A stretch of DNA of 64,000 nt from NCBI GenBank assembly GCA_045863295.1, contig BTWA01000001.1:293686-357685 (forward strand), read 5' to 3'. The notes beneath the pieces are model-generated. The model was not told the origin of the DNA. It was given only the letters and a program-made list of their open reading frames with translations, and ran no database searches. The DNA comes from Candidatus Hydrogenedentota bacterium (GTDB lineage: Bacteria; Hydrogenedentota; Hydrogenedentia; Hydrogenedentales; SLHB01). The position numbers and the translations under genes are program-made. Shown in pieces: positions 69-18,962 of this stretch (within the stretch, counting starts at the first letter, position 1; the number at the start of each line of letters is the position of its first letter).

Positions 69-207
69 GGAATCAAAGATTTAGGTACCCTTTTTCTGGT
101 GTTACAGGGCAGTATTTACCCTGTGGCTTGGGATTAGTCGTGAATGCTTGCATGCCAAGGCGTTGAGTGGGGGACGTAACGGCCGCGAGCGCCGAAAAGG
201 TGACACC

Positions 208-2508
208 ATGGCGAATCTTAAACGAACCCGGGCCAAGAAGCGGTTGGTGCTGGACGTAGGGGCCAGCGCGGTACGGCTTTGCGAGCTTTCGCAGACCAAG
301 ACGGGTTACCAACTCACGCGCTACATGCAACGTGAGTTTCCCATCACGCCCGACATGAGCGAAGAAGATCAGCTCGCCGCGCGCGTCGAAGTGGTGAAGG
401 CGCTATTGAAAGAATCCAAAGTGCGCCACAAGAAAACCGTGTTCGGCGTTCCCGGTCAATCGGTGTTCACGCGTACCCGCATGTTGCCTCCCGTCCCTGA
501 GTTTAAACTTACGCAAATCGTTCGTTACGAAATCCAACAGCAAATTCCTTTCGCGCTCGATCAGATCGCCCATGATTTCCAGGTATTGGAACGCACTGAA
601 GCCGGCGGATACGACGTGCTGATGGCGGCAATCAAAGTGGACGTCGTCGAGAAGCGCCTCGAATTGGTCAAGCAGATCAAGCGTCAGATCGACATTGTCG
701 ATGTAAGCCCATTGTCCGCGTACAACTGGCTGAAGTCGACCGGCGAATTTGGCGAACAGGGCGAATGCGTCGCCCTGGTGGATGTGGGCGCCGCGACCAC
801 CGACATTGTGATTGAGCGCGAAGGCAAATTCCGCTTTACGCGCAGCCTGAATATCGGCGGCAACGACGTGACCTCCGCGCTGGCGCGCGAATTCAACATG
901 GAATGGCCCAAGGCCGAACAGTTGAAACGCGAACGCGGTTTCGCACCCTCGGGCGACGCGCAAAAAGACGGCAAGGGCGGCGAAGTCATAGGCTCGGTGC
1001 TGAACCGGCTGGTTTCCGAAGTCAACCGGTCGTTTGCCTATTTCCGTTCGCAACCCGGCGGCGGTCCAGTATCTCGCGTGATATTGACTGGTGGCGGCGC
1101 GTGCCTTCGTAACATCGTGCCGTTCCTGCAGCGGCAATTGGGCGTGGAAGTGCGCATTGCCCAGCCGCTCGCGGGCCTGGCCATCGCGCCCGGCGCGCAA
1201 GAGGCCAACGATCATCCCGAACAAGCGGCCGTGGCATTGGGCTTGGCCTTGCGCTGCCGTCAGGCGGTGGCGCTTGAGCTGAATCTCATTCCGCCGCGCA
1301 TCCTCGAAGCGGCGCGCACGCGCGAGCAGGTTTTCTATTGGGCATTGTCCGCCACCACGCTTGCGCTCATCATGCTTTCGATTATTCCCGTGGAAGCGCA
1401 GAAGAACAAGCAGGTCAATGAAAACATCGACCTGTTGAAGCGCACCATGTTCCAGTACGATCCCGATTTTCAGGCCCAGCAGAATCAGAATCCCTCGGTG
1501 TGGAATACCAAGTACGAAGCGCAACTCTCCGCGGCCAAGGCGGAAGTCGATCGATACAAGGTTGACGTGGTCACGCTGGATAACTTCTACCGCGAGCGCG
1601 TGCCGTGGGTGCGCTACATGGGCATCATTAACGATGCGCGTCCCCGCGGCCAGATGATGGTATTCGATACCATGGAATCGAGCCTGATGCGCTCCCGCGC
1701 GGAGATGGTGCGTCAGGTGGCCCGCCGCAAGGCCAGCGGCCTTGGCAACGTGCAATTAAGCGCGGGCGACATGGCCGCGCTCAGCGGCGGGTCCGGATCG
1801 CTGATTCCCAAAGGCAAGGAGCAGATTTGGGAAGCCGTGCCGTTCGACAATATCGCAGCCGGCGTACCGCTGGATTACGGCCAGCCGGGCGTGGAGGGTT
1901 TGACGAGCACCCGCGGCGGATCGAGTTCGTCTTCCTCAGAAGAGAAGCCGCTCCCCAAGCCGGATCTGGTGAACGCGATTTCCATTTACGGGTACGCACA
2001 GAACAACCAGGTGGTGCTCGAATTCGTGGAGAACATCAAGAAGTCGGGCGAGTTTCTCGGTGGCCAGGGCGTGTACTTCGATCCGGCCACGGTGAATCCG
2101 GTTCCGGTTTCCGCGTTGTACAACGCCGGTTCCGAGCGTGCCGGCGCCCAACCCAAGCCCGGCACGGGGCTCGGCGATTCCACGGCCTCGGTAAACGATG
2201 AAGACGAAGATCGGCGCGAAGGACGCCGGGGCGGCCTTCTGGGCGGCGGCGGCAGCAGCAGCAGCAGTTCCGGCCCAAGGTCGTATACCGAAAAGGATCT
2301 GGCGTTTTACAACCTGGAACAGAGCATTGTGACGTTTGAGGTTCATTTGCAGTTCAAGGACGAGGTGATTACCGAACAGAAAGTGCTTACTGCCGCGGAT
2401 GAAGCCATTGCATCCGGCACCGCGGACAGCTATGGCGCTGCAAACGATGAAGAGGGAATGGACGAGGAGACGATGGAGCGCGAGCAGCGCCGTTTCCGGG
2501 GCCGGTAA
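208..2508 (+). CDS. pilM: Type IV pilus assembly protein PilM fused to a PilN-like TM/periplasmic region
   Basis: Actin-like motifs (LDVGASAVRL, VDVGAATTDI, IGGNDVT, LTGGGA, ALGLALR), then the PilN N-terminal motif LNLIP, a TM helix and a coiled coil. Start placed at ATG 208 after AAGGTG. Confidence 0.88.
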   Translation: MANLKRTRAKKRLVLDVGASAVRLCELSQTKTGYQLTRYMQREFPITPDMSEEDQLAARVEVVKALLKESKVRHKKTVFGVPGQSVFTRTRMLPPVPEFKLTQIVRYEIQQQIPFALDQIAHDFQVLERTEAGGYDVLMAAIKVDVVEKRLELVKQIKRQIDIVDVSPLSAYNWLKSTGEFGEQGECVALVDVGAATTDIVIEREGKFRFTRSLNIGGNDVTSALAREFNMEWPKAEQLKRERGFAPSGDAQKDGKGGEVIGSVLNRLVSEVNRSFAYFRSQPGGGPVSRVILTGGGACLRNIVPFLQRQLGVEVRIAQPLAGLAIAPGAQEANDHPEQAAVALGLALRCRQAVALELNLIPPRILEAARTREQVFYWALSATTLALIMLSIIPVEAQKNKQVNENIDLLKRTMFQYDPDFQAQQNQNPSVWNTKYEAQLSAAKAEVDRYKVDVVTLDNFYRERVPWVRYMGIINDARPRGQMMVFDTMESSLMRSRAEMVRQVARRKASGLGNVQLSAGDMAALSGGSGSLIPKGKEQIWEAVPFDNIAAGVPLDYGQPGVEGLTSTRGGSSSSSSEEKPLPKPDLVNAISIYGYAQNNQVVLEFVENIKKSGEFLGGQGVYFDPATVNPVPVSALYNAGSERAGAQPKPGTGLGDSTASVNDEDEDRREGRRGGLLGGGGSSSSSSGPRSYTEKDLAFYNLEQSIVTFEVHLQFKDEVITEQKVLTAADEAIASGTADSYGAANDEEGMDEETMEREQRRFRGR

Positions 2509-2572: not shown

Positions 2573-3604
2573 ATGAAGCGTTCGCAGATAATGATGATAG
2601 TCGCCATCGTGGCCGTAGCGGCCGCGCTGGGTGCGGTATACAAATTCTACGTGCTCGAACGGCTGACCAAATTCGCCTCGGACGAGAAGTATCTGACCGC
2701 GCTCAAGACCAAGTACGAAAACATCAGCAAGACCTTTCACGGCACCAAGCCCGAAGTGGTGGTCGAGGCCTACGCCAACAAAGTACAGCCGTGGCTGGCC
2801 GCACTGGATGCCCGGACGGATTACTACACCCTTGGCGGCATCCGCGACATTGAACCGATTCCCGAGGGCGAAGACGCCCGCTGGTATTACATTCGCAAGG
2901 CCCCGGACATGGTGAGGACGATCCAGGAGACGGCGTACAAGCAGAACATCGGCGTGCCGCCCGATCTCTGGTTTCAATCGCCCCAGCCTCCCCGGCTGCA
3001 GGGCATCACCGTGGAAAAGCAGCACGTAGAACGCTGGCTCCAGAACATTCAAATGGGTTCCGGCATTGTGCAGCAGTTGCTCGATGCCAAGGCTCTGCGG
3101 GTCGATGCCATTGAACTGTGGCCCCGCCGGGAAGGATCGTTGCTGTACATCTATCACGTAGGCGTGAAGATGTGGATGAACATGGAGCAACTGGCCACGT
3201 TTCTCAACGATATGCTCAGCGATCGCCGCCGTTGTTTCTTTGTCGACAACATCCGTATCCGGAATCCGTACGTGTTGTACGAGAATCCTCCGCTCCAGAT
3301 CGATCTCGTGTATACCATGTACGAACTGAAACCGACGGCAGACAAAACCAAGCTTGCCGCTCCGGCCGCGGCTGCGCCGATGATTGCCAGTGCGGCACCG
3401 GTTACGCCTGCGCCGGCCGCGACGACGCCGGGCGTCACGCTTCCGGGCGCCACGCCGCCCCCGGCCGCCGTGCCGGGTCTGAATCCGGAAGCGGCCGCGG
3501 CGCTGCAACAGGCGGCAAGCAGCCGCGATGAAGAGCGGACCGCGCGCCAAAGCCAGGGCAGCGGCGACTTTTTGGATTGGATATTGTCCTTCTTCCCGTT
3601 CTAA
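2573..3604 (+). CDS. PilO/GspM-like bitopic inner-membrane protein with Ala/Pro-rich tail
   Basis: N-terminal TM, coiled coil, ferredoxin-like segment (EQLATFLNDM...FFVDNIRI); position between pilMN and the secretin. Confidence 0.6.
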   Translation: MKRSQIMMIVAIVAVAAALGAVYKFYVLERLTKFASDEKYLTALKTKYENISKTFHGTKPEVVVEAYANKVQPWLAALDARTDYYTLGGIRDIEPIPEGEDARWYYIRKAPDMVRTIQETAYKQNIGVPPDLWFQSPQPPRLQGITVEKQHVERWLQNIQMGSGIVQQLLDAKALRVDAIELWPRREGSLLYIYHVGVKMWMNMEQLATFLNDMLSDRRRCFFVDNIRIRNPYVLYENPPLQIDLVYTMYELKPTADKTKLAAPAAAAPMIASAAPVTPAPAATTPGVTLPGATPPPAAVPGLNPEAAAALQQAASSRDEERTARQSQGSGDFLDWILSFFPF

Positions 3605-3676
3605 TCGGGAAGCAGGTTGAACGATGGAACACAGTACAGATAGCGCGTACGGCGGAAAAACCGGGCCAAGGTAGCC

Positions 3677-4213
3677 ATGGACCAGATACAAAAATTCGGA
3701 TTGATGCTGTGGGCGGTCAAGGAAAAGATCGTCCTGGCCTGCCTGGTCGCGATCCTGAGTTGGCAGGTGTACAAGGTGGTCATGAGCGCCAACGGCGCCG
3801 ATGCCGGAGTATCCGTCGGGCCGGTGACGCCGCCAAAGCCGGAGTTGACCGATTTGCAGGCGATCGGAGCGGAATCGCCGGGGCCGCCCCCGGAGCCGAT
3901 TCGGGTGCAGGAATTTACGGCCCTGGTCCGGCGCAACCCGTTTACGGTGTATGGCAATGAGGCTGGCGAATCCAGCGGCTCCACGCAAGTGGAAGAAAAG
4001 CTGGATCTGACGCTTGAACGCATTGTTCCCTGGAGGGACAACACGGTACGGGCACAGATACGCACCAAGACATCGCGCGCAGAACCTTATTACGAAGGTC
4101 AGTCCGTGGAGGACTTCAGAGTGGACAAGATCGATGCGGAGAAGCAGGAAGTGACCATCTTTTCCTTCAAGCATCAAAAGCAGTTCGTTTTGAAAGTCGG
4201 ACAGACCAGTTGA
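3677..4213 (+). CDS. PilP/GspC-like membrane-anchored protein
   Basis: TM, Pro-rich linker, RRNPF motif typical of PilP, C-terminal beta domain (EGQSVEDFRVDKID); immediately upstream of the secretin. Confidence 0.55.
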   Translation: MDQIQKFGLMLWAVKEKIVLACLVAILSWQVYKVVMSANGADAGVSVGPVTPPKPELTDLQAIGAESPGPPPEPIRVQEFTALVRRNPFTVYGNEAGESSGSTQVEEKLDLTLERIVPWRDNTVRAQIRTKTSRAEPYYEGQSVEDFRVDKIDAEKQEVTIFSFKHQKQFVLKVGQTS

Positions 4214-4270: not shown

Positions 4271-7200
4271 ATGAATGGTCGACGGATGCGGAAGGCCGCC
4301 GGAATGTCGTTGCTGTGCCTGCTCGTGGCGGCAATGACGGTATACGGCGGAGCGTTGACTGCCCAGGCGCAGGGGGCATCGGGCGCCGTGGAAGCTCCAA
4401 TTGTTACCGAGCCCCAACCCACCGCCGCGGAGAGCGGTCCCGAACCCCAGGGCGTGAGCCCGGCGGACGAGGCCTACAATGAAGGGGTGGCTCTCTACAA
4501 CCGGGGCATGTTCCTGGAGGCCTTGAACAGTTTTAACAGGGCCCTTGCGAACGATCCCAATCATCCTCACGCGAAGACCATGGCGGAACGCGCCCAGACG
4601 AAGTTACAGACCACGGCCGTAGGCCAGGAACCGGCTGTGCTTCAGACGTTCGAAACCTTCGAAGCCAAGCCCGCGGAATCGGAGACGACTTCCGATGCAG
4701 GCATTCCCGAATCGGCCGAAGAACTCCGCTACCAGACGGTGAAGGAACTGCTTGAGCAAGGCCAATTCCTGCTGGAGAACCGCAAGTTCGAACGTGCCCA
4801 GAAATTATTCGAGCGCGCCCTGATTATCGATCCCGAGAACAAGACCGCGGCCCGTCTGCTGCAAGAAGCGACAATCGGCACCTTTGACGAACGGCTTCCC
4901 CGCGAATGGCAGAAACTGGAAATCGACCGCCTCCGCATTCGCGAAAAGAGCGAACAAATCAAGCAACTCCCCGACGGCGCGGACGCATACGGCATCAAGG
5001 ACATCACCATCAGCGTTCCGGTCGCCGAAGAAGAATTTGTCCGTGAAGAAGAAAAGACCGACATCGAAAAAGCGCTGGATGAATTCGTCTCCATTGAATT
5101 CGAAGAGGAACACATCAGCAATATTCTCGATTACATCGCGGAATACGCGAGCATCAACATCGTGCTCGACAGCCGCGTCGTAGACCCGCCGCGCCAACCG
5201 GTGCCGCAGGTCCAACCCGGCGTACCGGGCACAGTTCCCGGCGGCGTTCCCGGAATTCCCGGGCAGCCCGGTTTTGGCGCGCCCCAACCGTTCGGCGTTC
5301 CGGGTCAAGGATTTCAGCAACCAGTTCCCGTGCAACAGCCGGCCTTCGAACCGACCGGCGATCCCGATGAAGATCGCCGGGCGTCTCGTCGAGGCGGCGG
5401 CCTCGGCAACATTCAGTTGCAGGGCGTCAACGGCCAGTTTGCGACCGGCCCCGGCGGCCAGCCTGTGTCGGATATCGTTTCCGACGGGTACACGGGCATC
5501 TTGAAATTGGATGACGTGCCTCTTCGCGATGCCCTCAAGGCTGTGCTCCGCCCCCTGAATCTTGATTTCAGCGTGCAACCTGGTTTCCTGTGGGTGAGCA
5601 CGGCCGAAAAGATTCGGACCGAATCGTTCGAAGAAATGGAAACCCGCATCTACGAACTGAAAAATGCGGGCGCGGAAACGCTCTTCAAGATTGTCGTGCA
5701 GAACCCCGGCGGACTTTCCGGCGGCGGCGGTGGCGGCTTCGGCGGCCAAGGCGGCGGTTTTGGCGGCCAGGGTGGTTTTGGCGGCGGTCAAGGCGGTTTT
5801 GGTGGCGGTGGCTTTGGTGGTCAAAGCGGCGGTTTTGGTGGCGGTGGTTTTGGCGGCCAAGGTGGCGGTGGCTTCGGCGGCGGTGGCTTTGGCGGTCAAA
5901 GCGGTGGTTTTGGCGGCGGTGGTTTTGGCGGCCAAGGTGGTGGTGGTTTTGGCGGCGGTGGCTTCGGCGGCGGTGGCTTTGGCGGCGGTCAGGGTGGTTT
6001 TGGCGGCGGTCAAGGCGGTGGCTTTGGCGGCGGTCAAGGCGGTTTTGGCGGTGGCCAGGGCGGTTTCGGCGGCGGCTCCATCCAGGTCTCCAATATCTCC
6101 CAACTGTTCTCCAACATTAACGACCAACTCGTCGGTGAACCGCCTGCGGTCATTGGCATCAGCACGGTTGGCACAGGGCTCGATGCGCGCCAGGGTCAGC
6201 AAGGAGCGGGTTTGGGTGCAGGCGGCCGGCGTGACGACGAGTTGGGCGGCGGCGGCCTCGGCGGCGGCGGTCTTAGCGGCGGCCAGACGGTCGGTACTTC
6301 CGGCACGGGATCCAGCTTGGGCAGCTCCGGCGGCTTGGGCGGATTCCAGGGTCAAGCTGAATTGCTGACCATATTGCAGAGCGCCATTCCCGAGATTGTC
6401 GAACCGTTCACCGACGAAGTGTTGTCGTGGATGATCTTCAATCCCACAACCAACCAACTCATCGTGCACAACACGCCCAGCAATCTGAAGAAAATGGAAG
6501 CGATGATCCAGGATCTGGACATTACGCCGAAACAGGTCAGCATCGAAGCGAAGTTTTTGGCCATATCCGTGACGGATCTCGACAAGATCGGCTTCACGTG
6601 GGACCTGACCCTGAGCGATCAGAACAGCCGCAATCGCGTTATTGACGCCATCGAAACGCCCGGCGTCTCCGATGCGGACGGCAACCCCGGCTATTTTGCC
6701 GATGTCAACGGCGACGGATCGAACGAGATTCTCCCGTTCTATACGCGTCCCGACGGCACCAACGTAATTAACAACACCGTATCCACCCTTACCGGTACAG
6801 GCGCGGTGAATCCCGGACCCGACGGCACGTTTGACCTGAATGCGGTCATCCTGCAAAACGAGGACGGCGATCAATTGAGCGTTATGATGGACTACCTCAA
6901 CAGCCTGACGGAGACCGAGTTGTTGAGCGCGCCGCGCGTGACCACGATGAACCGCAAACCGGCGGTCATCGCGGATATCCTGACGCAGACGTTCCAGACT
7001 CAGGTCTTCCAAGAAATCATTGTGAGCGATTCCGGGTTTGGCGGCGGCGAAACGACTGCCTCGGTGCAGCAACCACAATTCTCCACCTTTACGTTCGGTA
7101 TCGTGTTGTCCGTTACACCGCAAATCAGCGGCAGCAATCAGGTCCGGTTGTGGCTGAACCCGCAGGTGACCACGCAACAGGGACAAGACGAATTCATCGC

Positions 7201-7498
7201 GACGTCCACGGTGGACGGAAACACGCAAACCGCGACCATCCGTTTCCCGCGCGTGTCGATTCAATCCGTCTGGACCAACGTCATCGTGAACGACGGCGAC
7301 ACGCTTGTGCTGGGCGGGCTCATCACGGATCGCACGACGCGCGGCAAGACCAAGATGCCGTACGTGGCGGACATTCCGGTGATCGGCTACTTCTTCCGTG
7401 GCAAGTCGACGGAAATCACGCAATCGAGCCTGTTGATCTTCACCACGGTGAACATCATCGATCCGACCGGTGCACGCTTCTTCGAAGCGGGCGCATAG
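4271..7498 (+). CDS. Type II/IV secretion system secretin (PilQ/GspD family) with N-terminal TPRs and Gly/Phe low-complexity insert
   Basis: Signal peptide, TPR motifs, N3 domain (TNQLIVHNTPSNL...LDITPKQVSIEAKF), secretin core (LLSAPRVTTMNRKPA, GIVLSVTPQI, VNDGDTLVLGGLI, PYVADIPVIGYFF); RBS GGAGG. Confidence 0.93.
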   Translation: MNGRRMRKAAGMSLLCLLVAAMTVYGGALTAQAQGASGAVEAPIVTEPQPTAAESGPEPQGVSPADEAYNEGVALYNRGMFLEALNSFNRALANDPNHPHAKTMAERAQTKLQTTAVGQEPAVLQTFETFEAKPAESETTSDAGIPESAEELRYQTVKELLEQGQFLLENRKFERAQKLFERALIIDPENKTAARLLQEATIGTFDERLPREWQKLEIDRLRIREKSEQIKQLPDGADAYGIKDITISVPVAEEEFVREEEKTDIEKALDEFVSIEFEEEHISNILDYIAEYASINIVLDSRVVDPPRQPVPQVQPGVPGTVPGGVPGIPGQPGFGAPQPFGVPGQGFQQPVPVQQPAFEPTGDPDEDRRASRRGGGLGNIQLQGVNGQFATGPGGQPVSDIVSDGYTGILKLDDVPLRDALKAVLRPLNLDFSVQPGFLWVSTAEKIRTESFEEMETRIYELKNAGAETLFKIVVQNPGGLSGGGGGGFGGQGGGFGGQGGFGGGQGGFGGGGFGGQSGGFGGGGFGGQGGGGFGGGGFGGQSGGFGGGGFGGQGGGGFGGGGFGGGGFGGGQGGFGGGQGGGFGGGQGGFGGGQGGFGGGSIQVSNISQLFSNINDQLVGEPPAVIGISTVGTGLDARQGQQGAGLGAGGRRDDELGGGGLGGGGLSGGQTVGTSGTGSSLGSSGGLGGFQGQAELLTILQSAIPEIVEPFTDEVLSWMIFNPTTNQLIVHNTPSNLKKMEAMIQDLDITPKQVSIEAKFLAISVTDLDKIGFTWDLTLSDQNSRNRVIDAIETPGVSDADGNPGYFADVNGDGSNEILPFYTRPDGTNVINNTVSTLTGTGAVNPGPDGTFDLNAVILQNEDGDQLSVMMDYLNSLTETELLSAPRVTTMNRKPAVIADILTQTFQTQVFQEIIVSDSGFGGGETTASVQQPQFSTFTFGIVLSVTPQISGSNQVRLWLNPQVTTQQGQDEFIATSTVDGNTQTATIRFPRVSIQSVWTNVIVNDGDTLVLGGLITDRTTRGKTKMPYVADIPVIGYFFRGKSTEITQSSLLIFTTVNIIDPTGARFFEAGA
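5720..6076 (+). repeat. Coding low-complexity repeat: 18 GGFGG units with Q/S spacers
   Basis: Direct translation of GGC/GGT/TTT/TTC-rich tandem sequence, 119 codons. Confidence 0.95.
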
Positions 7499-10808: not shown

Positions 10809-12131
10809 ATGCGCCAAACCATTGCCGGCACGCTCACGGTCTTGTGTCTTGCTCTCCCGGGTTGCGGCGGATCCGGTACAGGGTCCGGACCTGCATCGGA
10901 GGATGCGCCGTTTAAGTCGATTGACCCTGCCGCGGTTGTGTTGTGGGACCGGCAAACACAAGAGTTTTCCGATCTCATCAAAAACATCGCGGATACGTTT
11001 AATAAAGACCGCGAAGGATTGCCCGTACGCGTCGAGTACATGGGCGACTACAGCGATATCTACCGCAAGGTGACGCTGAGCATTCAAGCGGGCGAACTCC
11101 CCTCCATGGCCGTCGGGTACGAAAGCATGACCGCCGAATACGTGCGGTTGGGCGCGGTCCGGCCCTTGGGCGAGTTCATTCGCGATCCGGAATTGGGTTT
11201 TTCGGAAGAGGAGATTGCCGATTTCTTCCCCGGTGTCGTCGACACGAACCGGTACGGCCAGTTTGGCGGCGAGTACTACTCGTTTCCCTTCTGCAAAAGC
11301 GTGCTCACCCTGTTTTTCAACAAGCGCGTGTTGAAGAAGGCCGGTTTCGACGGACCGCCGCAAACATGGGACGACTTCCTGGAGCAATGCCGCGCCGTAC
11401 GGGCCAAGACCGGCAACTACGGGTACGCCCTCAATGCCGACTGTTCCACGCTCAATGGCATGATCTTCAGCCGGGGCGGCGACATTGTCTCGGGCAATCA
11501 ATCGCTGTACGACTCGCCCCAATCAATTGCCGCATTCGAATTCCTTGAAACGCTCGCGAAAGAAAAACTCGCCTATCAAATCACGCCAGGCACCTACGAC
11601 GACCGCGAAGCCTTTGCCCAGGACAAAGCGGCCTTCTTCTTCCGGTCAAGTGTTCACAGACCGTTCACGCAAAAGTTGATGCAGGGCGATCAGGACGCGT
11701 GGGGTCTTGCCATGATTCCGCAGGCCGATCCGGCCAATCCGTCCACAGTGTTGTATGGGCCGAATGTGATGGTCTTCAAAACGGGGAATGAACAAGAACG
11801 CGTTGCGTGGGAGTTTATCCGGCACTTCACCTCTCCGGAAATTTCTTCGAATTGGGCGCTGATCACTGGGTACATCCCGATGCACAAATCGTCGGCAGCG
11901 GACCCGCGCGTTCAGGCCTACTGGAAAGAATGGGAATACAACCGCGTGCCGTTCGACAGCTTGGCCGTGGCCCGTGCCGAGCCCAATCTCGTGGGCTGGC
12001 AGGAAGTACGATCACTGGTGGAACGGGCTTGGTCCGATGTGATGTCTGAAGTCAAAACAGGCCGGGAAGCCGCGTTGGAATTGAAACAGCAGGCGGATGC
12101 GGTGCTCGCACGGTTCCAATCTGCGCGCTGA
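10809..12131 (+). CDS. ABC transporter substrate-binding lipoprotein (UgpB-like)
   Basis: Lipobox LPGC, YSFPFCKS, PQTWDDF, TGYIP; follows two permeases. Confidence 0.88.
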   Translation: MRQTIAGTLTVLCLALPGCGGSGTGSGPASEDAPFKSIDPAAVVLWDRQTQEFSDLIKNIADTFNKDREGLPVRVEYMGDYSDIYRKVTLSIQAGELPSMAVGYESMTAEYVRLGAVRPLGEFIRDPELGFSEEEIADFFPGVVDTNRYGQFGGEYYSFPFCKSVLTLFFNKRVLKKAGFDGPPQTWDDFLEQCRAVRAKTGNYGYALNADCSTLNGMIFSRGGDIVSGNQSLYDSPQSIAAFEFLETLAKEKLAYQITPGTYDDREAFAQDKAAFFFRSSVHRPFTQKLMQGDQDAWGLAMIPQADPANPSTVLYGPNVMVFKTGNEQERVAWEFIRHFTSPEISSNWALITGYIPMHKSSAADPRVQAYWKEWEYNRVPFDSLAVARAEPNLVGWQEVRSLVERAWSDVMSEVKTGREAALELKQQADAVLARFQSAR

Positions 12132-12136
12132 CCCTG

Positions 12137-12898
12137 CTACTTCGGCTCTTCAAGACCCATAATCGGCTTCAGCCAGAGCATGATTTGATCGGGCACCGTG
12201 GGCACGCCGTCGAGCAGGTCGTGGCCCTGATAGGTGCCCGCATATTCGCGAAACTCGCACTGACCCTCGGCCTCCTCTTTCAATACCATGCACGTCGATG
12301 CCGCGTACGTGTCGCCCTGGGAAGCCATCAGCAGGACCGGCCGGTTGCCGTATGCGCTCATGAGACCCGTGCTGGGCACGCCTTTGAGCGATTTGCCAGG
12401 AGAGATCATCACCAGCGCCACAATATCCGGTTGATCCAGGGCAAAGTGCAGGGCAAGGTTCGCGCCTATGTCGACGCCGATAACCGCCATATTGTCAGCG
12501 GATACCCCCTCCGCTTCCAATGCGCTCCGCGCCGCGCCGATGTCGCCCAACGTTTGAAGCCAATCTTCGGCGTCAAAATCGCGATACGCGCCTCCTTCGT
12601 GACCCCGCAAGGTCAGTGACATGACGGCATAGCCGGTTCGTTGCGCCAGCAGCGCGAGCGGCGTCATTGCATTCAAATCGCGGCCATAGCCATGAATCAG
12701 AATCAGGCCGGGAGCGTCGGGCCGCGCGGATTGGAAGTATTCGATGGGCACGGGCGCCCCATCCGCGGCAAGAATCTGCCGCTGTTGTCCAGCCGCCGGG
12801 CCTCTCGCACTTCGATTGCCGCATCCCGCGCACAACAGGCACGTGAATACCGCCAATGCAAAGGCGATTCGAGTAGAGTTGGCGATGAGTCGTTTCAT
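12137..12898 (-). CDS. Alpha/beta-hydrolase-fold lipoprotein
   Basis: Lipobox CAGC, LILIHG, LRGHEG, elbow GVDIGA, LVMISPG. Confidence 0.8.
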   Translation of the reverse strand: MKRLIANSTRIAFALAVFTCLLCAGCGNRSARGPAAGQQRQILAADGAPVPIEYFQSARPDAPGLILIHGYGRDLNAMTPLALLAQRTGYAVMSLTLRGHEGGAYRDFDAEDWLQTLGDIGAARSALEAEGVSADNMAVIGVDIGANLALHFALDQPDIVALVMISPGKSLKGVPSTGLMSAYGNRPVLLMASQGDTYAASTCMVLKEEAEGQCEFREYAGTYQGHDLLDGVPTVPDQIMLWLKPIMGLEEPK

Positions 12899-12905
12899 AA
12901 ACAAC

Positions 12906-12937
12906 CGAGGGGATCGGCCATGAGTCCGATCCCCTCG
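12906..12937 (-). terminator. Hairpin, probable terminator downstream of the SCP2 gene
   Basis: Perfect 12-bp inverted repeat CGAGGGGATCGG / CCGATCCCCTCG with 8-nt loop, followed by GTTGTTT on the minus strand. Confidence 0.6.
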
Positions 12938-12964
12938 TCACATGATTCCGTACAAAGGCCCCAA

Positions 12965-13288
12965 TTAGATCTTGAAAATGCTCTGGAGTTTCATGGCCAG
13001 GCTCATATCGCCTTTGATCTTCAGCTTTCCCGTCAAGAAGGCTGTTTGACCGTTTAGTTGTCCGGATACGATCTTCAACCAGTTTTCATCCGTTGTGGTC
13101 AACGTGATGTTTGGCGTGTCCGCCGTGCCCTGGACAATATCCACAGAACCATCGGCCAGCTTCACGTACCACTGCCCGCCGTTGTCGCCGGAGATGTCGA
13201 ATTGATAAATGCTGTTCATGCCTGCGGTCTTCGCAGGGTCAATCTTGCTGGAAAGCTCGGAAAAGAACTGTGCAACAGAGTCTGCCAT
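12965..13288 (-). CDS. SCP2 sterol/lipid-binding domain protein
   Basis: YQFDISG...GQW, AFLTGKLKIKGDMSLAMKL signature; RBS GGAGGGAG. Confidence 0.92.
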   Translation of the reverse strand: MADSVAQFFSELSSKIDPAKTAGMNSIYQFDISGDNGGQWYVKLADGSVDIVQGTADTPNITLTTTDENWLKIVSGQLNGQTAFLTGKLKIKGDMSLAMKLQSIFKI

Positions 13289-14142
13289 GTCGAAAACTCC
13301 CTCCTGGTTTTTTTAGGACCGCACCGATGGCCTTGCAATCGGTTGTCGTGCCTTGCCCCTGAGTCAAACCCTTCCAACCGTTACGCGCCGGCCCCTCCTG
13401 AATGGATTGAAACTGCGCGTGTCACCCGCTGTAAGCAAAGGCGCCGCCTATGCTTGGACGTGTTACTCTACCACAGGCGCCGGATCTGGTCAATCTGTAT
13501 ACCTAGCGGTAGGAAGGGGTTCCGCCGGATTGTGGCCGTCTGCGCGTCCCGCATCCCACGCCCAACCGGAACGCGCTTGCCCTTCTGAAAACCTCGGGCG
13601 TTCCCCATCCGGCGCGCCGCGGGCCCGTTCCGTGACGGCCGGTTTCCCTCGGCCAAAAGCATTCGGAAATCATAGCGCTCTCCAGAGTTTTTTTGTCCGT
13701 GACGTGCGCAATTTGGAGACGAGAATCGCGTGCACCTGAATGTGAATCGAACGTACATTCTTTCCTCAATCCGAAACCTCGATTTGGATCGCAGTCGCGA
13801 TCCAAACTCGCACTCGATCGCGTCGAATTTTACAACCGCGAACACACACGATTCAGGCGCGACGATTTCCGCGCGCGAGCATGCAAGCGATGCCAAAACT
13901 GTCGTTTGCCGTCTTTTTCAAAAAAATTTTTTCAGCCGGGATGAACGCCTGAAAACCGTTCTTTGCACCCTTTCGAAGGTTGGATCCGGCGATCGCAATT
14001 GGACGATCGCATCGTTCGTGATCGCAGATCGGCCTTATTTTATAGGGTGATCCACGATCGACGCCGCATTCGCACGCACGAACAAACGGGGAGCGATAAC
14101 CACTTTGAGCGGTCTCGAATGGTCGTGATCGGGGATAGTCGT

Positions 14143-14196
14143 AAAGAAATAAAAAACAAGAAAATGCTTGCTATTTTTTACGTTCTCTGCTACACA
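14143..14196 (+). promoter_or_regulatory. Candidate sigma70 promoter with UP element
   Basis: A-tracts at 14143-14164, TTGCTA (14168-14173), 17 nt, TACACA (14191-14196). Confidence 0.45.
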
Positions 14197-14749
14197 AATA
14201 CTAGTCGGTTGTACAACGGAGCGTCGATGAGGTCTCAAAAGACGACGCAACGGTGCCAACGACACGAGCGGAAGGAACAAAAATCCGCTTCCGAAAATTG
14301 AATCAAAGTGACGATGCGAACGAAAAATCTTTGCGGTCCAGGTTGGCCAATGAACCTATGTCGGAGTGCTGGTCCCACATCGACCCTGGCTTGCGAAAGA
14401 TGCGTTTCCGGGTACAATTGAGAAGTGAATCGCCGGAAGGCAGTTTGCATCACGTGAATGCATGAAGAGTCTCGGAGGAAGGCCGTACGCTCGGTGACAG
14501 TGAGCGCAAGATGGCCTTTTCGTGGGGTAGTAGGGAGCAATACGGGGTTCGACACGGCAATCTGGACGGGTTGCCGGGCGCCATTTCCCAATTTCCCAAT
14601 GAAATACCCCGGGATTTCTGTGTACAACGGGCGTCTGAGGCCGCCCGTGCCGTCAACCCAGCGCACGTCGGGAGGCAGGGAATCGCGTTCCAAGCCCCTT
14701 CCTTCCGTCGTAATACGTGGCAGAGGCATAACGAAAGGAGGAATCTGTA

Positions 14750-14929
14750 ATGGCAATGGCGAAGAAGAAGGCTGCAAAGAAGAAGGCCGCTCCGAAGAAG
14801 AAGGCGGCGCCGAAGAAGAAAGCAGCCCCGAAGAAGAAGGCCGCCCCGAAGAAGAAAGCGGCTCCGAAGAAAAAAGCGGCCCCGAAGAAAAAAGCCGCCG
14901 CGAAAAAGAAGACCGTCGCGAAAAAGTAA
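14750..14929 (+). CDS. Small histone H1-like Lys/Ala/Pro-repeat protein (59 aa)
   Basis: AAAGGAGG RBS then ATG; translates as MAMAKKKAA(KKKAAP)x6KKKAAAKKKTVAKK*; synonymous variation between repeats; below the ORF-track length cutoff. Confidence 0.88.
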   Translation: MAMAKKKAAKKKAAPKKKAAPKKKAAPKKKAAPKKKAAPKKKAAPKKKAAAKKKTVAKK

Positions 14930-15269
14930 CCCGTAGCTTCTACGGTCTGCTTTGACATTTGAACCATCCCGACTGCCAGAGGTTGCGCTTCACGGCGCCG
15001 GCTCTACGACGTAGAGCCACGGGCAGAAAAGATGGTCAAATTCACACGATTCGAGCGGTCACGCATCTGAGGCACGTTGGATTTTCCAAAAGAATTCCGG
15101 CGTGCCTCATTCTTTTAACTCGCGCACTGGATCGGCCGCCACCGTTTGTGGCATTCCTAGGGCGTACCAAGAACAACTGAACCCAACGCAACCCAACGTC
15201 CAAAGAACCGGACGGACTGCGGCTTCCCGGCCCGGCAGGCGTTGCGCGCATTTTAGAACGAGGTAAATC

Positions 15270-17465
15270 GTGCCAACCACCCCTAACCCCGACAAACTTC
15301 GAGCCGGCTTGTTACAGGCCATTGCCGAAGCCAAAGCGCCGGGTGCATGCGCCATTATCGGAGACGCCGAACACACCTATCTGCACGACGCGCAGGGAGC
15401 GCGGCAGTTGATTCCCACCCGGCTTCCGGTGGAAACCTCCACCCTGTACGACTTGGCGTCACTTACCAAAGTCATTGCCACTACGACGGCTCTCATGCAG
15501 CTTTATGAAGCCGGCGAAATCGATCTCGACCAGCCGGTATCCGATATCTATCCGATTCCAGCCTTTTCCGCATTTACCATCAGGCATTGCCTGACTCACA
15601 CCACGGGCTTGTCCGCCGGTCTGCCGTATTACAAAGACGCCAAGAGCATTGACGAAATGCTGCAGCGCTACTCCGCCCTCCCGCTCAAGTGGACGCCGGG
15701 TTCGCGCTGGTTGTACTCCGATGTCGGGTTCATGCTCCTCGGCCGCATTGTGGAACTCAAGGCCCGTGACTCCATTGATTCGTACTGCAAACGCCACATT
15801 TTCGATCCCCTGGAAATGACCCGAACCCTGTACACGCCGCCCAAGGATCTCGCGCCGCTCTGCGCGGCGACAGAGCAATGTGCGTGGCGCAAACGCGTCA
15901 TCGCAGGCGAAGTCCACGATGAAAATTGTTCGGCCGTGGGCGGCGTGGCCGGGCACGCGGGCCTGTTTGGAACCGCTGAGGATCTCGCCAGATTCTGCCG
16001 GGCGCTACTTACGGGAAGGCTGCTCAAGAGCAAGACAGTCAGTCAAATGACCGCGTTTGGCCAAACGATTCCGTACCCATGGCAGGGACTGGGCTGGCAA
16101 ATTGATCCGTGGGCCAGCAAAAACCAGGGCTATTTGCCGTCGCGAACCGCCATCGGTCACACGGGCTGGACGGGAACCAGCATTTGGATGGACACCGCAA
16201 CCGGGCTGTTTGCCGTGTTATTGGGCAACACATGCCATCCCAGCCGGACAGAGCGCGACAACGGTCTCTATCGCCGCGTCTTCTACACCGCGGTCGCAAA
16301 AGAATTCTACGTCAACACCACGACCCACTCTGGACTGGATCGCCTCCTGCGGGAAGACTTCGCCGAATTGCGCGGTCACCGTATTGCGCTCTTGACCAAC
16401 CATGCCGCCGTGGATCAACAGGGCCGCCACGCGTTGGACGTGCTCAAAATCGCGCCCGATGTCCGTATTGCCACCTTGTACAGTCCGGAACATGGCATTC
16501 GCGGCCATGCCGAAGCGGGCGAATCCGTCGCGTCGGAGAACGGCCCCATACCCGTCGTCAGTCTTTACGGCGACCGGAAATTCCCGTCCAAGGAAGAACT
16601 GGAATCCATCGATTATTTTGTCGTCGACCTTCAGGACATCGGCTCGCGATACTACACCTACATGTCCACCATGAAGGATTGTCTGGCCGCATGTGCCGCC
16701 ATGAAAAAGACCGCGCTCATTTTGGACCGCCCCAATCCCGTGGGCGGCGCCGTATTGGAAGGGACCATCGCTCAGACCGTGGGATCCCCGGTCTGTTGCG
16801 CCCCGATTCCCGTGCGCCATGGCATGACCATGGGAGAATTAGCGCTGTACTTTCTCCAAACAGAGTTCTCGGCCACTCCGCTTCGCGTTCTGGTCAGTCC
16901 GTTGGACAATTGTGAGCGCGCTCGCTTCTTCGACGAATGCACGCTCCCGTGGGTTCCCCCTTCTCCCAACATGCCCACAGCGGAAACAGCGTTGTTATAT
17001 GTGGGCACGTGCCTGTTTGAAGGCGTCAACGTCAATGAAGGCCGGGGCACCGACACGCCGTTTCATGTAATGGGATCGCCATGGATGGATGCAAAGCGCA
17101 TCGTCGAAAACGTCCACCCCGAAGATCGTCCCGGTATCGATTTGGAGCCCGTCCGCTATACGCCCAAAGCCATCCCCGGCAAGGCGGCCAATCCCGCCTA
17201 TCGCGATGAGGCATGCGAAGGCGTTCGTCTGATTGTGCGCGACAAGCGATCGGCGCGGCCCTTTCGCACGGCAATCGCCCTGCTCGCCGCCCTGCGCGAA
17301 CTACATCCCCGAAAGCTCGAATTCAAACCCATGTTCGATGTACTGGCCGGAGGCGACGCTTTGCGCACCCGCATCCAAAACGGCGACGCCGCTTCCGCCA
17401 TCGTACTGGACAGCGAAGCGGCGCTGGCGGCATTTGACGCAGTCCGGCCCAAACGCTACGAATAA
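15270..17465 (+). CDS. Fusion of beta-lactamase-family serine hydrolase (AmiE-like) and NamZ/DUF1343 exo-beta-N-acetylmuramidase
   Basis: SxxK (ASLTK), YSD, GEVHDEN, GHAGLF, GHTGWTG; then LLTNH, SPEHGIRG, DLQDIGSRYYTY, LDRPNP, RHGMTMGE, WVPPSPNMP, EGRGT. Confidence 0.9.
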   Translation: MPTTPNPDKLRAGLLQAIAEAKAPGACAIIGDAEHTYLHDAQGARQLIPTRLPVETSTLYDLASLTKVIATTTALMQLYEAGEIDLDQPVSDIYPIPAFSAFTIRHCLTHTTGLSAGLPYYKDAKSIDEMLQRYSALPLKWTPGSRWLYSDVGFMLLGRIVELKARDSIDSYCKRHIFDPLEMTRTLYTPPKDLAPLCAATEQCAWRKRVIAGEVHDENCSAVGGVAGHAGLFGTAEDLARFCRALLTGRLLKSKTVSQMTAFGQTIPYPWQGLGWQIDPWASKNQGYLPSRTAIGHTGWTGTSIWMDTATGLFAVLLGNTCHPSRTERDNGLYRRVFYTAVAKEFYVNTTTHSGLDRLLREDFAELRGHRIALLTNHAAVDQQGRHALDVLKIAPDVRIATLYSPEHGIRGHAEAGESVASENGPIPVVSLYGDRKFPSKEELESIDYFVVDLQDIGSRYYTYMSTMKDCLAACAAMKKTALILDRPNPVGGAVLEGTIAQTVGSPVCCAPIPVRHGMTMGELALYFLQTEFSATPLRVLVSPLDNCERARFFDECTLPWVPPSPNMPTAETALLYVGTCLFEGVNVNEGRGTDTPFHVMGSPWMDAKRIVENVHPEDRPGIDLEPVRYTPKAIPGKAANPAYRDEACEGVRLIVRDKRSARPFRTAIALLAALRELHPRKLEFKPMFDVLAGGDALRTRIQNGDAASAIVLDSEAALAAFDAVRPKRYE

Positions 17466-17475
17466 AGGAGCGAGA

Positions 17476-17673
17476 TTAGTCTACTGGCGCATCCGCCTTG
17501 TACATGACGACAAATACCAAGTCCCCGGAACCCGCTCGGCCACCCGGTTCGTGGGACATACACACCTTGATATCCACCACGTCAACCCGCGATTGCTGAA
17601 GCCAGCCGTTCACCGCGCCGTCCAGAATATGAATCTTGTCCTCGTAACCCTTGAATGACTTCACAAATACCAC
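17476..17673 (-). CDS. Small hypothetical protein (65 aa), Cse60/DUF2758-like pattern
   Basis: GGAGGGG RBS before GTG; VKxF...L..AVN.WL...VVDIK...Y pattern recalled from the Cse60 family. Confidence 0.6.
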   Translation of the reverse strand: MVFVKSFKGYEDKIHILDGAVNGWLQQSRVDVVDIKVCMSHEPGGRAGSGDLVFVVMYKADAPVD

Positions 17674-18020
17674 GATGAATCCCCTCCAGTTAGGCCGTCA
17701 ACCCGCATTTTGCATCACGCTTAAAGCGAGCGTGGAAGACTGAAGTACAGTCTCCGTGGTGCAAAATGCACACACAGAATAGTTTGGGCTTGAAACGCAA
17801 AGAAAATTTCACGAGCACTGCACTTGCATCGGATTGGTCAATGGCCCGGCAGTATAGTTGTTCCACAGTTAGTTGGACAAAGTCGTGAAATATACGGGTT
17901 AATCGTTGCCGGCGTCTTCCGCGCCCGGTCTCGATGCGCCGTCATTCCCAAACCAGCCGAATCGTTATACCACAGAAATCCAACGCACTCCGAAACCGGA
18001 CGTCACGCCGCGATTCCGCA

Positions 18021-18962
18021 TCAGAATAACTCCGCCTGCCGCGGGTCACCATGCTGACGGATCGAGGCCGCGCCCGTTATCCGATTCGGATCGAATTGAC
18101 CATCCGGTCCCAAAAGCGGCACCGCACCGGCGGCCTGAAGCAATCGGGCTCCCTCGGGAAACGACGGCGCCGGATACACCAGCACGGGCTTGCCTTGTTC
18201 AATGGCCGCGCGCCCTGTGCGGATGCTTCCGCCCTTCTTCTTGGGCTCAATGACACACACCAAATCCGAGAGTCCACTGATAAACGCGTTACGTTCTACC
18301 GCGGCGTGGGTTTGCCATTCCATGTCGGGTGGACACGCGCTGATCAACGCCAGCCGCCCTTCGTCCATGGCCTCAAGCGCTTCACGCGGCGGACGAAACG
18401 TCAGCACACCTTGCGGAAGTACCATCGCCGTGACGCCGCCACCCCCAATCGCAGCCGAATGCGCCGCCATGTCCACCCCTTGTGCGCCACCGCTTACGAC
18501 CGTCATCGCGGCCTCAACAAGTGCCTCCGCGCAGGCTTGCGCCAACAGCAACCCGCGCTCGCCCGCGTCGCGCGCACCCACGACCGCGCCGCACGGCGCC
18601 GCCAACACATCCATGTTGCCCGCAATCCAGAGCAATACCGGCGCGCTTTCCCCGAGCGATGACAAGAGTCCGCGCGGATAATCGTCGCTCTGTACCGTGA
18701 CCGCTTGCGCACCCGCGTGAGTCGCTTTGAGGTATATCCGCTCCGCCTGTTCCCTGTGAGAAACAGCTGCCGCAAGAGAACTCACGACGCGCGCATCCGT
18801 ATTCACGGGCAACGCCTCGGTCAATTGCCGGGGAGGCAATTGAAGCAGCGAATCCAGCGGCATGCCCGCGGCCATCCCCGCGGCAAGTGCTTGCCGCGCT
18901 ATCGCATTGCCTGCGCCCGGCGTGTTCAACACGGCAAGCAGCGCGATCGCATCAAAAGACAT
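18021..18962 (-). CDS. dprA: DNA-processing protein DprA/Smf (SLOG fold)
   Basis: DDYPRGL, AVVGAR, VVSGGAQGVD..AH, RNAFISGLS, KGGSIRTG. Confidence 0.85.
   Translation of the reverse strand: MSFDAIALLAVLNTPGAGNAIARQALAAGMAAGMPLDSLLQLPPRQLTEALPVNTDARVVSSLAAAVSHREQAERIYLKATHAGAQAVTVQSDDYPRGLLSSLGESAPVLLWIAGNMDVLAAPCGAVVGARDAGERGLLLAQACAEALVEAAMTVVSGGAQGVDMAAHSAAIGGGGVTAMVLPQGVLTFRPPREALEAMDEGRLALISACPPDMEWQTHAAVERNAFISGLSDLVCVIEPKKKGGSIRTGRAAIEQGKPVLVYPAPSFPEGARLLQAAGAVPLLGPDGQFDPNRITGAASIRQHGDPRQAELF

Follow-up and report, generated by a model that had tools for sequence, protein, structure and literature searches.

We analysed a 64,000-nucleotide stretch of contig BTWA01000001.1 (hereafter the window) from an uncultured sludge bacterium of the phylum Hydrogenedentota. 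The gene at 4271..7498 on the forward strand encodes the outer-membrane channel of a type IV pilus machine, a PilQ-type secretin in which the variable loop of the N3 domain is expanded to a 217-residue insert. This insert consists of a Gly/Phe tract, a conserved Gly-poor island and a second Gly-rich piece. Judging from its relatives, what is retained in the tract across the phylum is not Phe as such: it is a poly-Gly chain without charge, in which a hydrophobic residue (F, M, Y or L depending on the lineage) recurs at regular intervals. A second family of small periplasmic proteins carries the same island together with a tract whose hydrophobic residues match those of the secretin. We propose, as a serious possibility that we hold tentatively, that the loop inserts of a secretin ring cohere below the gate into a compressible plug or gasket.

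A secretin whose N3 domain is split by a disordered insert

The secretin runs from its N to its C terminus through a signal peptide, TPR helices, an N0/STN-like domain, an N3 domain with the insert, and the pore domain. Its features are as follows (window coordinates, all on the + strand; HMM, profile hidden Markov model; pLDDT, predicted local distance difference test).

4271..7498, +, TPR-secretin gene, 1075 amino acids (aa) (Pfam, NCBIfam, AlphaFold model, Foldseek)
4460..4963, +, TPR/helical region, residues 64-231 (Pfam TPR_2/TPR_1 matches; modelled helices 64-116 and 149-231)
5060..5599, +, N0/STN-like domain, residues 264-443 (secondary structure, pLDDT, weak alignment to the N0 region of VcPilQ, family consensus)
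5639..5698, +, first half of N3: strand 1 (457-462) and helix 1 (from 464) (AlphaFold model)
5702..6352, +, complete insert at the N3 variable loop, residues 478-694 (217 aa, 18.3 kDa), with disorder predicted throughout most of it (pLDDT, flank mapping)
5708..6076, +, Gly/Phe tract, residues 480-602 (composition, repeat analysis)
6077..6181, +, conserved island, residues 603-637 (column conservation)
6182..6352, +, second, less regular Gly-rich piece, residues 638-694 (composition)
6353..6517, +, second half of N3: extra helix 697-705, strands 720-724 and 729-734, helix 736-749 (AlphaFold model; Secretin_N match)
6533..7462, +, secretin pore domain, residues 755-1064 (PF00263 at 877-1064; beta strands 755-1063; Foldseek/HMM matches to PilQ, GspD, InvG)

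The protein belongs to the secretin superfamily, since PF00263 matches residues 877-1064 with 105.8 bits against a cut-off of 27.5. In a Foldseek search with an AlphaFold model built from an alignment of 83 relatives, the best structural match was V. cholerae PilQ (6w6m, E 1.4e-19), followed by GspD, PulD, InvG and pIV (E-values for PilQ, GspD, InvG and pIV of 1e-19 to 2e-9). The database copy, P0002, is the same secretin with its start at Met12 (window 4304) and a length of 1064 aa. The NCBIfam profiles that ranked highest all scored below their cut-offs: TIGR02515 (PilQ) gave 149.9 bits against a curated cut-off of 284.35, GspD 140.4 against 351.35, MshL 132.1 against 250.2, and NF042912 (Amuc_1098 family) 122.6 against an equivalog cut-off of 750. 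Identity to the proteins that NCBI names Amuc_1098 family is 25-30%. Proteobacterial PilQ proteins typically have N-terminal AMIN domains; Pfam gave no AMIN match in this secretin, which has TPR repeats there instead. On sequence grounds it is best described as PilQ-like, from a distinct TPR-bearing clade.

The insert sits between helix 1 and strand 2 of N3, which is the site of the known variable N3 loop. Through this region the AlphaFold model gives a strand (457-462), a helix (464-469), disorder (472-693), a helix (697-705), two strands (720-724 and 729-734) and a helix (736-749), with pLDDT below 50 for residues 472-608 and 626-693. An N3-type ring-building domain (457-749) thus lies directly before the pore domain. 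Because this domain is split by the insert, Pfam Secretin_N stays below its cut-off: only profile positions 36-69 match, at residues 722-755, with 23.3 bits against 28.2. The solved type II secretion system secretin ExeD (6i1x) has a Gly/Ala/Thr loop at the matching N3 position, and its N3 strand 1 and helix 1 line up with the first half of N3 here, in a profile alignment whose score of -3.2 bits is insignificant on its own.

The Gly/Phe tract (residues 480-602) is made of 90 G, 18 F, 11 Q, 3 S and 1 L, arranged as 18 GGFGG units with Q or S in some of the spacers and with zero charged residues. Successive Phe residues are 5-8 positions apart, and the evenness of this spacing was matched by none of 2000 shuffles. 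At the DNA level the repeats are imperfect, with 60-90% matches for periods of 15 to 75. Codon choice differs between the tract and the rest of the gene: GGT makes up 41% of Gly codons in the tract and 15% elsewhere, GGG and GGA account for 1 of 90 against 18 of 98, and TTT is used for 14 of 18 Phe residues against 11 of 42. A genome-wide habit of making such tracts can be ruled out, since only 2 of the 35,235 six-frame open reading frames (ORFs) of at least 80 aa in this genome contain one. Two other candidate identities were rejected: RTX-type GGxGxD repeats, as the tract has no Asp, and a polyglycine-II sandwich fold, as no confident structure is predicted.

Immediately after the tract comes the island, a Gly-poor segment that is the sole conserved sequence in the insert and is common to the secretins and the small-protein family. 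Its core of 23 residues reads SNISxLFxxIxDxxVGExPAxIG and is followed by GTG. Among 83 secretins the key positions are conserved at 88% (N), 88% (F), 87% (D), 86% (V), 93% (G) and 96% (E); N, F, D, V, G, E and P are conserved without exception in the 70 small proteins. The model gives the island a pLDDT of about 53 and a one-turn helix at 609-612. A complex prediction with four copies of the island (residues 596-645) scored 0.02 against a mark of 0.42, which speaks neither for nor against self-association. The second Gly-rich piece is, across the family, 39% G, 13% A, 9% Q and 8% T, with some D and E.

An earlier note, made from the letters of the window alone, had already identified the protein as a secretin, seen that the insert splits N3, and counted 18 GGFGG units in 119 aa; our analysis agrees on each of these, the count of residues being right to within a few. 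The synonymous codon variation that it described is also there (Gly codons GGC 52, GGT 37, GGA 1; Phe codons TTT 14, TTC 4). Its description of about 90 further Gly-rich residues needs amending: a Gly-rich piece does follow the island, but residues 603-694 are not uniform, starting as they do with the Gly-poor island at about 603-637. That island, and the partner protein family that shares it, were overlooked.

The assembly of the tract was compared with other contigs. Logan contigs from the likely source run tile 5300-5893, 5866-5983 and 5956-6700 with 0 differences, and 5466-5874 and 5889-6039 are covered, again with 0 differences, by short contigs of another study. No single contig covers the entire tract, so the number of units is without independent proof. 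For runs X2, X3 and X5, gaps in contig cover carry no weight.

Other reading frames across window positions 5590..6368 contain a 176-aa Arg/Trp-rich ORF, a 234-aa Ala/Val-rich ORF and part of a 920-aa ORF on the minus strand. These are by-products of the GGC/GGT repeat, not genes.

Two further insertions were seen in the secretin. A second disordered insert, rich in Pro, Gly and Gln (residues 305-399, window 5183..5467), interrupts the N0/STN-like domain, and the family consensus there is also Pro/Gly-rich. Early in the pore domain, residues 784-870 (window about 6620..6880) form an insertion with nearly invariant D811, G814, D815 and G816 and the consensus YDINGDGV.E.IPFY.RPDG, a putative loop of the calcium-binding type.

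The tract follows a composition rule across the phylum

An ortholog of the C-terminal half of the secretin was found in 118 of 135 Hydrogenedentota genomes, and in 80 of the 86 high-quality ones; the relatives carry Candidatus Hydrogenedentes or Hydrogenedentota names. The insert could be mapped by both of its flanks in 93 of 121 proteins, 89 of which are family members. Eight proteins without an island recognisable by regular expression were left out (P0031, P0043, P0045, P0054, P0084 (Gly/Tyr/Arg-rich), P0079 (Thr-rich), P0088, P0089 (short)), and 81 remained.

At least 5 hydrophobic residues are present in the Gly tract of 71 of these 81 relatives. Of the 81, 54 have tracts in which hydrophobics account for half or more of everything other than Gly. 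The residue that ranks first after Gly is M in 26 relatives, F in 23, Q in 11, S in 7, Y in 6 and L in 3, with none or another in 5. Pooling 76 tracts (6,843 residues) gave 70.7% G, 6.1% F, 5.9% M, 4.2% Y, 3.5% Q, 3.0% S and 1.8% R, with D, E, K and P each below 0.1%. The spacing of the residues is more even than in shuffles (p<0.01) in 63 of 69 tracts, a regularity that tandem duplication could create by itself.

The non-Gly residues are not those that decay of poly-Gly would yield. A single nucleotide change in a Gly codon could give only 410 of the 2,007 (S 208, R 121, A 40, V 34, D 5, E 2, C 0, W 0), while F (418), M (406) and Y (288) together contribute 1,112. As so few residues are one step from Gly codons, the hydrophobics are maintained features rather than decayed poly-Gly, and acidic residues are purged from the tracts.

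The earlier note saw the novelty in a regular Phe 'sticker' pattern and suggested surveying homologs for Phe-Gly (FG) periodicity. The survey partly agrees: the close homologues P0003-P0007 keep 8-11 GGFGG units each, but family-wide the residue may be F, M, Y or L. A quick IQ-TREE tree shows the residue types grouping by clade, with switches between well-supported sister proteins (P0038 with Y and P0066 with F; P0055 with M and P0062 with F) in which the architecture stays unchanged.

The tract has left its mark on public assemblies. Many contigs of the phylum end at the Gly tract, giving secretin ORFs of 400-600 aa that start near contig ends, and 'partial' secretins such as P0015, P0074 and P0076 start inside the tract. 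The tract breaks short-read assemblies, and many secretin genes of the phylum are therefore split or truncated in public metagenome-assembled genomes.

The feature recurs outside the phylum. The outgroup protein P0097 has Ile in a Gly tract at this N3 site, and P0104 and P0112 have short plain poly-Gly there. A search for the P0097 family gave 1,749 matches at E<=1e-20, which, where named, belong to Limisphaerales, Verrucomicrobiales or Verrucomicrobiota. Among the 120 of these matches that were listed, 64 have a Gly tract of at least 30 aa, and 52 of those 64 have at least 5 hydrophobics (L 17, V 16, F 11, I 6). At the same N3 site this family (P0213-P0331) has a different mid-tract motif, which is PRVDVTG-like.

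A small periplasmic protein carries a matching tract and the same island

The second tract-bearing ORF of the genome lies outside the window, on contig C77:4226-5311 (locus L010), and encodes 362 aa. The protein opens with a signal peptide and a small beta domain, continues through a long helix, half of an STN/N0-like domain and an N3-like strand 1 and helix 1 to a GGFGG/Q tract of 50-60 aa, and closes with the island, about 30 residues and the stop. Members of its family that carry tract and island are typically 300-390 aa long. AlphaFold gives low confidence to its N3-like strand and helix, its tract and its island alike. A search gave 91 proteins at E<=1e-5, of which about 75, at E<1e-30, are 295-470 aa long with the same architecture. 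Since about 75 close members with this architecture exist in Hydrogenedentota, the protein is not a fragment; several of the genes sit on contigs of 0.2-6.6 Mb.

The gene for the small protein lies outside the pilus cluster. In 4 of the 7 loci examined it stands divergently beside genes for a MoxR AAA+ ATPase, a Ser/Thr kinase, a TPR-LysM-YkuD L,D-transpeptidase and a GAF-GGDEF cyclase. The loci of the relatives were found by an alignment-based scan; a single small-protein query gave no relative.

For a comparison of the two proteins within genomes we took 16 further genomes with a long secretin frame and a full-length small-protein match, chosen before their tracts were seen. In two of these (G067 and G065) the stretch retrieved yielded no small-protein tract, so that together with the genome of the window 15 pairs were available. 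In all 15 the small protein and the secretin use the same hydrophobic residues: F with F in 8, L and F with L and F in G099, M/Y with M/Y in 5, and Y and F with Y and F in G100. Details of the spacers sometimes match too, such as N-F in G059. The cosine between the hydrophobic vectors averaged 0.92 against 0.49 in permuted pairs, a value reached by none of 20,000 permutations in a test that ignores relatedness. Recent gene conversion is unlikely to be the cause of the match: the longest DNA shared by the two tracts is 13-27 nt, not above that in synonymous-codon shuffles, in 11 of 11 genomes. We infer that the small protein probably joins the meshwork of secretin loops.

The search also returned P0198-P0203 and P0207-P0212, which are about 220-260 aa long and combine a full STN domain and an N-domain-like strand and helix with a GGFGG/GGLGG tail at the C terminus (11-20 Gly-flanked Phe), but have no island. 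They may stem from split secretins, as the N-terminal halves, or form a further family with such tails.

A proposed cohesive plug under the gate

The orientation of the loop can be judged by homology with better-studied secretins. In f1 pIV a disordered N3 loop is described as directed into the pore's centre (in the part of PMC8563730 that deals with it), the N3 loop of PulD (288-303) is spoken of as a channel constriction (in a passage of PMC6882859), and in closed InvG the periplasmic constriction is attributed to the variable loop 217-265 (in the relevant section of PMC6155069). By analogy with these three, the loop of the Hydrogenedentota secretin would face the channel lumen.

The inserts of a 12-15-mer ring add up to 220-275 kDa. 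The lumen at the level of N3 is 60 Å wide in VcPilQ (PMC7545093) and 74 Å in pIV (as given in a portion of PMC8563730), and the dry volume of the inserts alone exceeds that of a cylinder 60-75 Å wide and 50 Å high. The earlier note's figure of roughly 200-270 FG motifs per ring is sound arithmetic (216-270 for 12-15 subunits). The lumen at N3 level cannot take in a mass of this size. The inserts must therefore occupy the wider periplasmic vestibule below the gate. In a chamber 90-100 Å wide and 100 Å high their concentration is estimated at 465-720 mg/ml; FG phases of the Nup98 type were measured at 310-600 mg/ml, according to the measurements in a section of PMC9918544.

Such a mass may cohere. 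The tract has one hydrophobic per 6.5 residues, a density similar to that of GLFG 12-mers. From the same portion of PMC9918544, shorter uncharged spacers increase the cohesion of FG phases, Tyr is stronger than Phe, the motif can be replaced provided that hydrophobicity is kept, and negative charge counters phase separation. By analogy, cohesion of a tract with one Phe per 6-7 Gly is plausible. A benefit is plausible as well, because secretins leak small molecules and an optional extra top gate tightens the seal (as reported in part of PMC10550240).

We propose the following model. The N3 variable loop would have been expanded to an 18-kDa uncharged disordered chain, made of the Gly/Phe tract, a docking island and the second Gly-rich piece. 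Twelve to fifteen such tethered chains, sticky and flexible, would fill the periplasmic vestibule at about the density of FG phases and cohere into a compressible, self-healing mass. When the channel is idle and no pilus is present, the mass would plug its periplasmic mouth; during passage of a pilus it would be squeezed aside, or wrapped round the fibre as a gasket or displaced collar. The island would anchor or organise the chains, and the small protein would join them by like-with-like contacts. A stronger version, which we regard as somewhat doubtful, is that the 12-15 loops and the soluble periplasmic protein, sharing lineage-specific hydrophobics (F, M/Y or L) and the docking island, form a two-component, condensate-like seal, that is, a phase in the vestibule through which the pilus is extruded and retracted.

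Several observations weigh against this model. Ten of the 81 relatives have fewer than 5 hydrophobics, among them P0008 (R), P0044 (T), P0073 (Q/R), P0030 (Ser-rich) and P0082 (none); since some relatives lack the tract or its hydrophobics, the tract is not indispensable. Its length is 30, 37 and 132 aa in P0048, P0049 and P0053, whose flanks are identical, differences that fit loose constraint or assembly collapse, the latter of which may contribute. The even spacing of Phe is explicable by a tandem-repeat origin alone. On well-supported branches the residue match between the two proteins amounts to 1 independent pair, and on all branches to 2; with so few, a sign test is without power and co-evolution is not statistically supported. 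A 60-Å pilus inside a 100-Å chamber would raise the concentration to about 850 mg/ml, so that most of the mass must move aside. The orientation of the loop is taken from homology only, and in InvG with its needle bound the corresponding loop leaves the lumen, passing between N3 and N1, as one section of PMC6155069 describes. A repeat with a single Phe per 12 residues (GAFG) showed no phase separation at 10 µM in the experiments covered by part of PMC9918544.

Alternative explanations

The insert might instead be a leash, in which the island is a functional docking motif (for the neighbouring N3/N0 ring, the gate, the alignment complex or the pilus) and the Gly tracts are mere flexible tethers. 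The island is indeed the sole strongly conserved sequence of the insert, with its 7 positions invariant in 70 of 70 small proteins, it is kept where the tract is short (P0047, P0067), and in open InvG part of the variable loop forms a helix that docks between domains (in the account within PMC6155069). A tether, however, needs neither a hydrophobic every 5-8 positions nor the exclusion of D, E, K and P, nor a residue match between two proteins, and monomer models give the island low confidence; we consider this explanation unlikely. Rather more unlikely in our view is an external collar or elastic coupler, with the loops leaving the lumen between the N3 and N0 rings to form a soft periplasmic collar, for example a cushion or anchor in the peptidoglycan. 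The outward path of the same loop in needle-bound InvG would fit (in the section of PMC6155069 on that state), as would the excess of insert mass over the lumen at N3 level, the want of an AMIN domain in the Pfam annotation of the secretin, and the partner gene that adjoins the TPR-LysM-YkuD L,D-transpeptidase gene in 4 of 7 loci. The insert has no peptidoglycan-binding motif, however, and the accounts of pIV and PulD put the loop or constriction inside the channel (in parts of PMC8563730 and PMC6882859).

A tolerated low-complexity expansion would require no function at all beyond non-interference, replication slippage having inflated a permissive surface loop. It would account for the imperfect tandem DNA repeats, for the very different lengths between near-identical proteins and the tract-free members, and for the short plain poly-Gly at the same site in the outgroups P0104 and P0112. 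We nevertheless think it improbable: the tract is retained through most of the phylum, the one-step products of Gly codons are depleted, D and E above all, a conserved island is embedded in the insert, a second gene family follows the same rule with matching hydrophobics and no shared DNA, and the feature recurs in a Verrucomicrobiota secretin family. The reading of the earlier note, a nucleoporin-like selective phase in which the FG tract is a barrier passable only for cargo or carriers that have FG-binding surfaces, appears very improbable. The tract is uncharged, FG-rich, disordered and tethered to a ring, and its estimated density falls in the range of FG phases (those quoted in a portion of PMC9918544). 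Against this, nothing points to transport receptors: we saw no receptor-like candidate and no homology to nucleoporins, Phe is replaced by M, Y and L in relatives, and the Gly spacers and the spacing of 5-8 are nearer to abductin. The substrate of a PilQ-type secretin is moreover a fibre, not diffusing cargo. Type IV pilus fibres are 5-6 nm wide.

Comparison with known systems

N3 loops that vary, and are sometimes rich in Gly, are already known, as is the site of the insert. The Hydrogenedentota loop shares with those of InvG (217-265), PulD (288-303), f1 pIV and ExeD its position after helix 1 and before strand 2, and its disorder. The known loops are about 15-50 residues long, without a described sequence rule, whereas the present one has 217 residues with a regular tract, an island and a partner protein. 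In the titles and abstracts of the literature on secretin loops, on secretins with FG repeats and on Amuc_1098 we found no description of the long Gly-plus-hydrophobic tract, the embedded island, its near-universality in the phylum or the partner family.

FG domains of the Nup98 type offer a likeness in being disordered and charge-depleted, with repeated hydrophobics and many ring-tethered copies. By the measures applied to such domains the tract qualifies in its 18 FG in 123 disordered residues, none of them charged, with pLDDT below 50; Phe is not conserved among the orthologues, where M, Y and L replace it. The tolerance of Nup98-type motifs as long as hydrophobicity is kept (described in part of PMC9918544) mirrors the F/M/Y/L switches of the secretin tract. 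There is no homology to nucleoporins, and the Gly spacers with a spacing of 5-8 differ from the 12-residue units with mixed uncharged spacers of the engineered Nup98-type domains covered in that portion of PMC9918544. The tract also has one hydrophobic per unit rather than GLFG, a filament as its substrate and no known transport receptors.

Closest in chemistry is abductin, the protein of the bivalve hinge ligament, a compressive elastomer and random coil with the repeat GGFGGMGGGX; next to Gly, at 58 mol%, it contains mainly Phe and Met, and very little Pro (from a section of PMC9999432). The secretin family has its counterparts in GGFGG, GGMGG and GGYGG. Abductin differs in being an animal extracellular matrix protein of unrelated descent, probably covalently cross-linked and with no channel. 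Among bacterial proteins the nearest analogue in architecture is GroEL, whose (GGM)4M C-terminal tails are likewise unresolved Gly-plus-hydrophobic repeats contributed by each subunit, forming a barrier in the lumen of a ring, for which hydrophobicity and flexibility matter (as set out in part of PMC11978752). They differ in having 13 residues per subunit, in standing at a chain end and in the cytosol, and in serving protein folding and the partitioning of two cavities. The cap or top gate of the Vibrio-type type II secretion system is, as in our proposal, a lineage-specific accessory second closure on a leaky secretin (according to a passage of PMC10550240), but it is a folded beta hairpin at the extracellular end instead of a disordered periplasmic mass. 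By these analogies the proposed plug would resemble abductin rubber and the Gly-Met tails of GroEL more than the receptor-selective barrier of the nuclear pore.

Secretins are holes 60-90 Å wide in the outer membrane, and their tightness is only partly understood. To our knowledge, the solutions described for sealing them are folded gates. If our proposal is correct, the sealing of a bacterial channel round a moving filament by a disordered plug, tethered and cohesive, would follow another physical principle. The two-component seal, if it exists, would be an independently evolved prokaryotic counterpart of the FG phase of the nuclear pore with abductin-like chemistry, widespread in Hydrogenedentota and recurring in Verrucomicrobiota. 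The natural F, M, Y and L variants, with a partner that tracks the chemistry of the channel, offer a ready-made experiment on hydrophobic identity and condensate specificity.

The pilus gene cluster and other secretins of the genome

The secretin is the last gene of a same-strand cluster whose order is T2SSE ATPases (PilB-like, PilT-like), PilC, four pilins, two giant proteins, an FGE-sulfatase/PEGA protein, a PilM-PilN fusion, two ORFs and the secretin. The genes directly upstream are the following.

148..2508, +, PilM-PilN fusion gene, in the same orientation as the secretin (PilM_2 2.4e-49; weak PilN match; TIGR01175 pilM 176.8 bits against a cut-off of 133)
2573..3604 and 3677..4213 (within 2573..4213), +, two ORFs in the pilO/pilP position between pilMN and the secretin (no family match)

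Because of the PilM-PilN fusion upstream, the cluster is that of a type IV pilus-type machine. Neither Pfam nor NCBIfam gave a PilO or PilP match for the two ORFs at 2573..3604 and 3677..4213, and 0 families matched. Matches to T2SSE ATPases, two long and one short (PilT-like), lie at contig C1:269-273 kb, and T2SSF/PilC and four N-methyl pilin genes lie within 20 kb upstream. As expected of a PilQ, the secretin is thus encoded with pilM/N and served by PilB, PilT, PilC and pilins.

Between the pilins and pilMN, on contig C1 and upstream of the window, lie two giant ORFs, at locus L009:4296-11717 (2473 aa, lamin-tail domain) and 11919-18473 (2184 aa, beta-helix and TIG). They could be pilus-associated adhesins or secreted substrates.

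The genome has 8 secretin-domain matches, 7 of them above the cut-off. On contig C3, two neighbouring short ORFs (97728-98186 and 99089-99571; L006 and L007; 427 and 441 aa) each match the secretin domain, and this pair may be a split or duplicated secretin.

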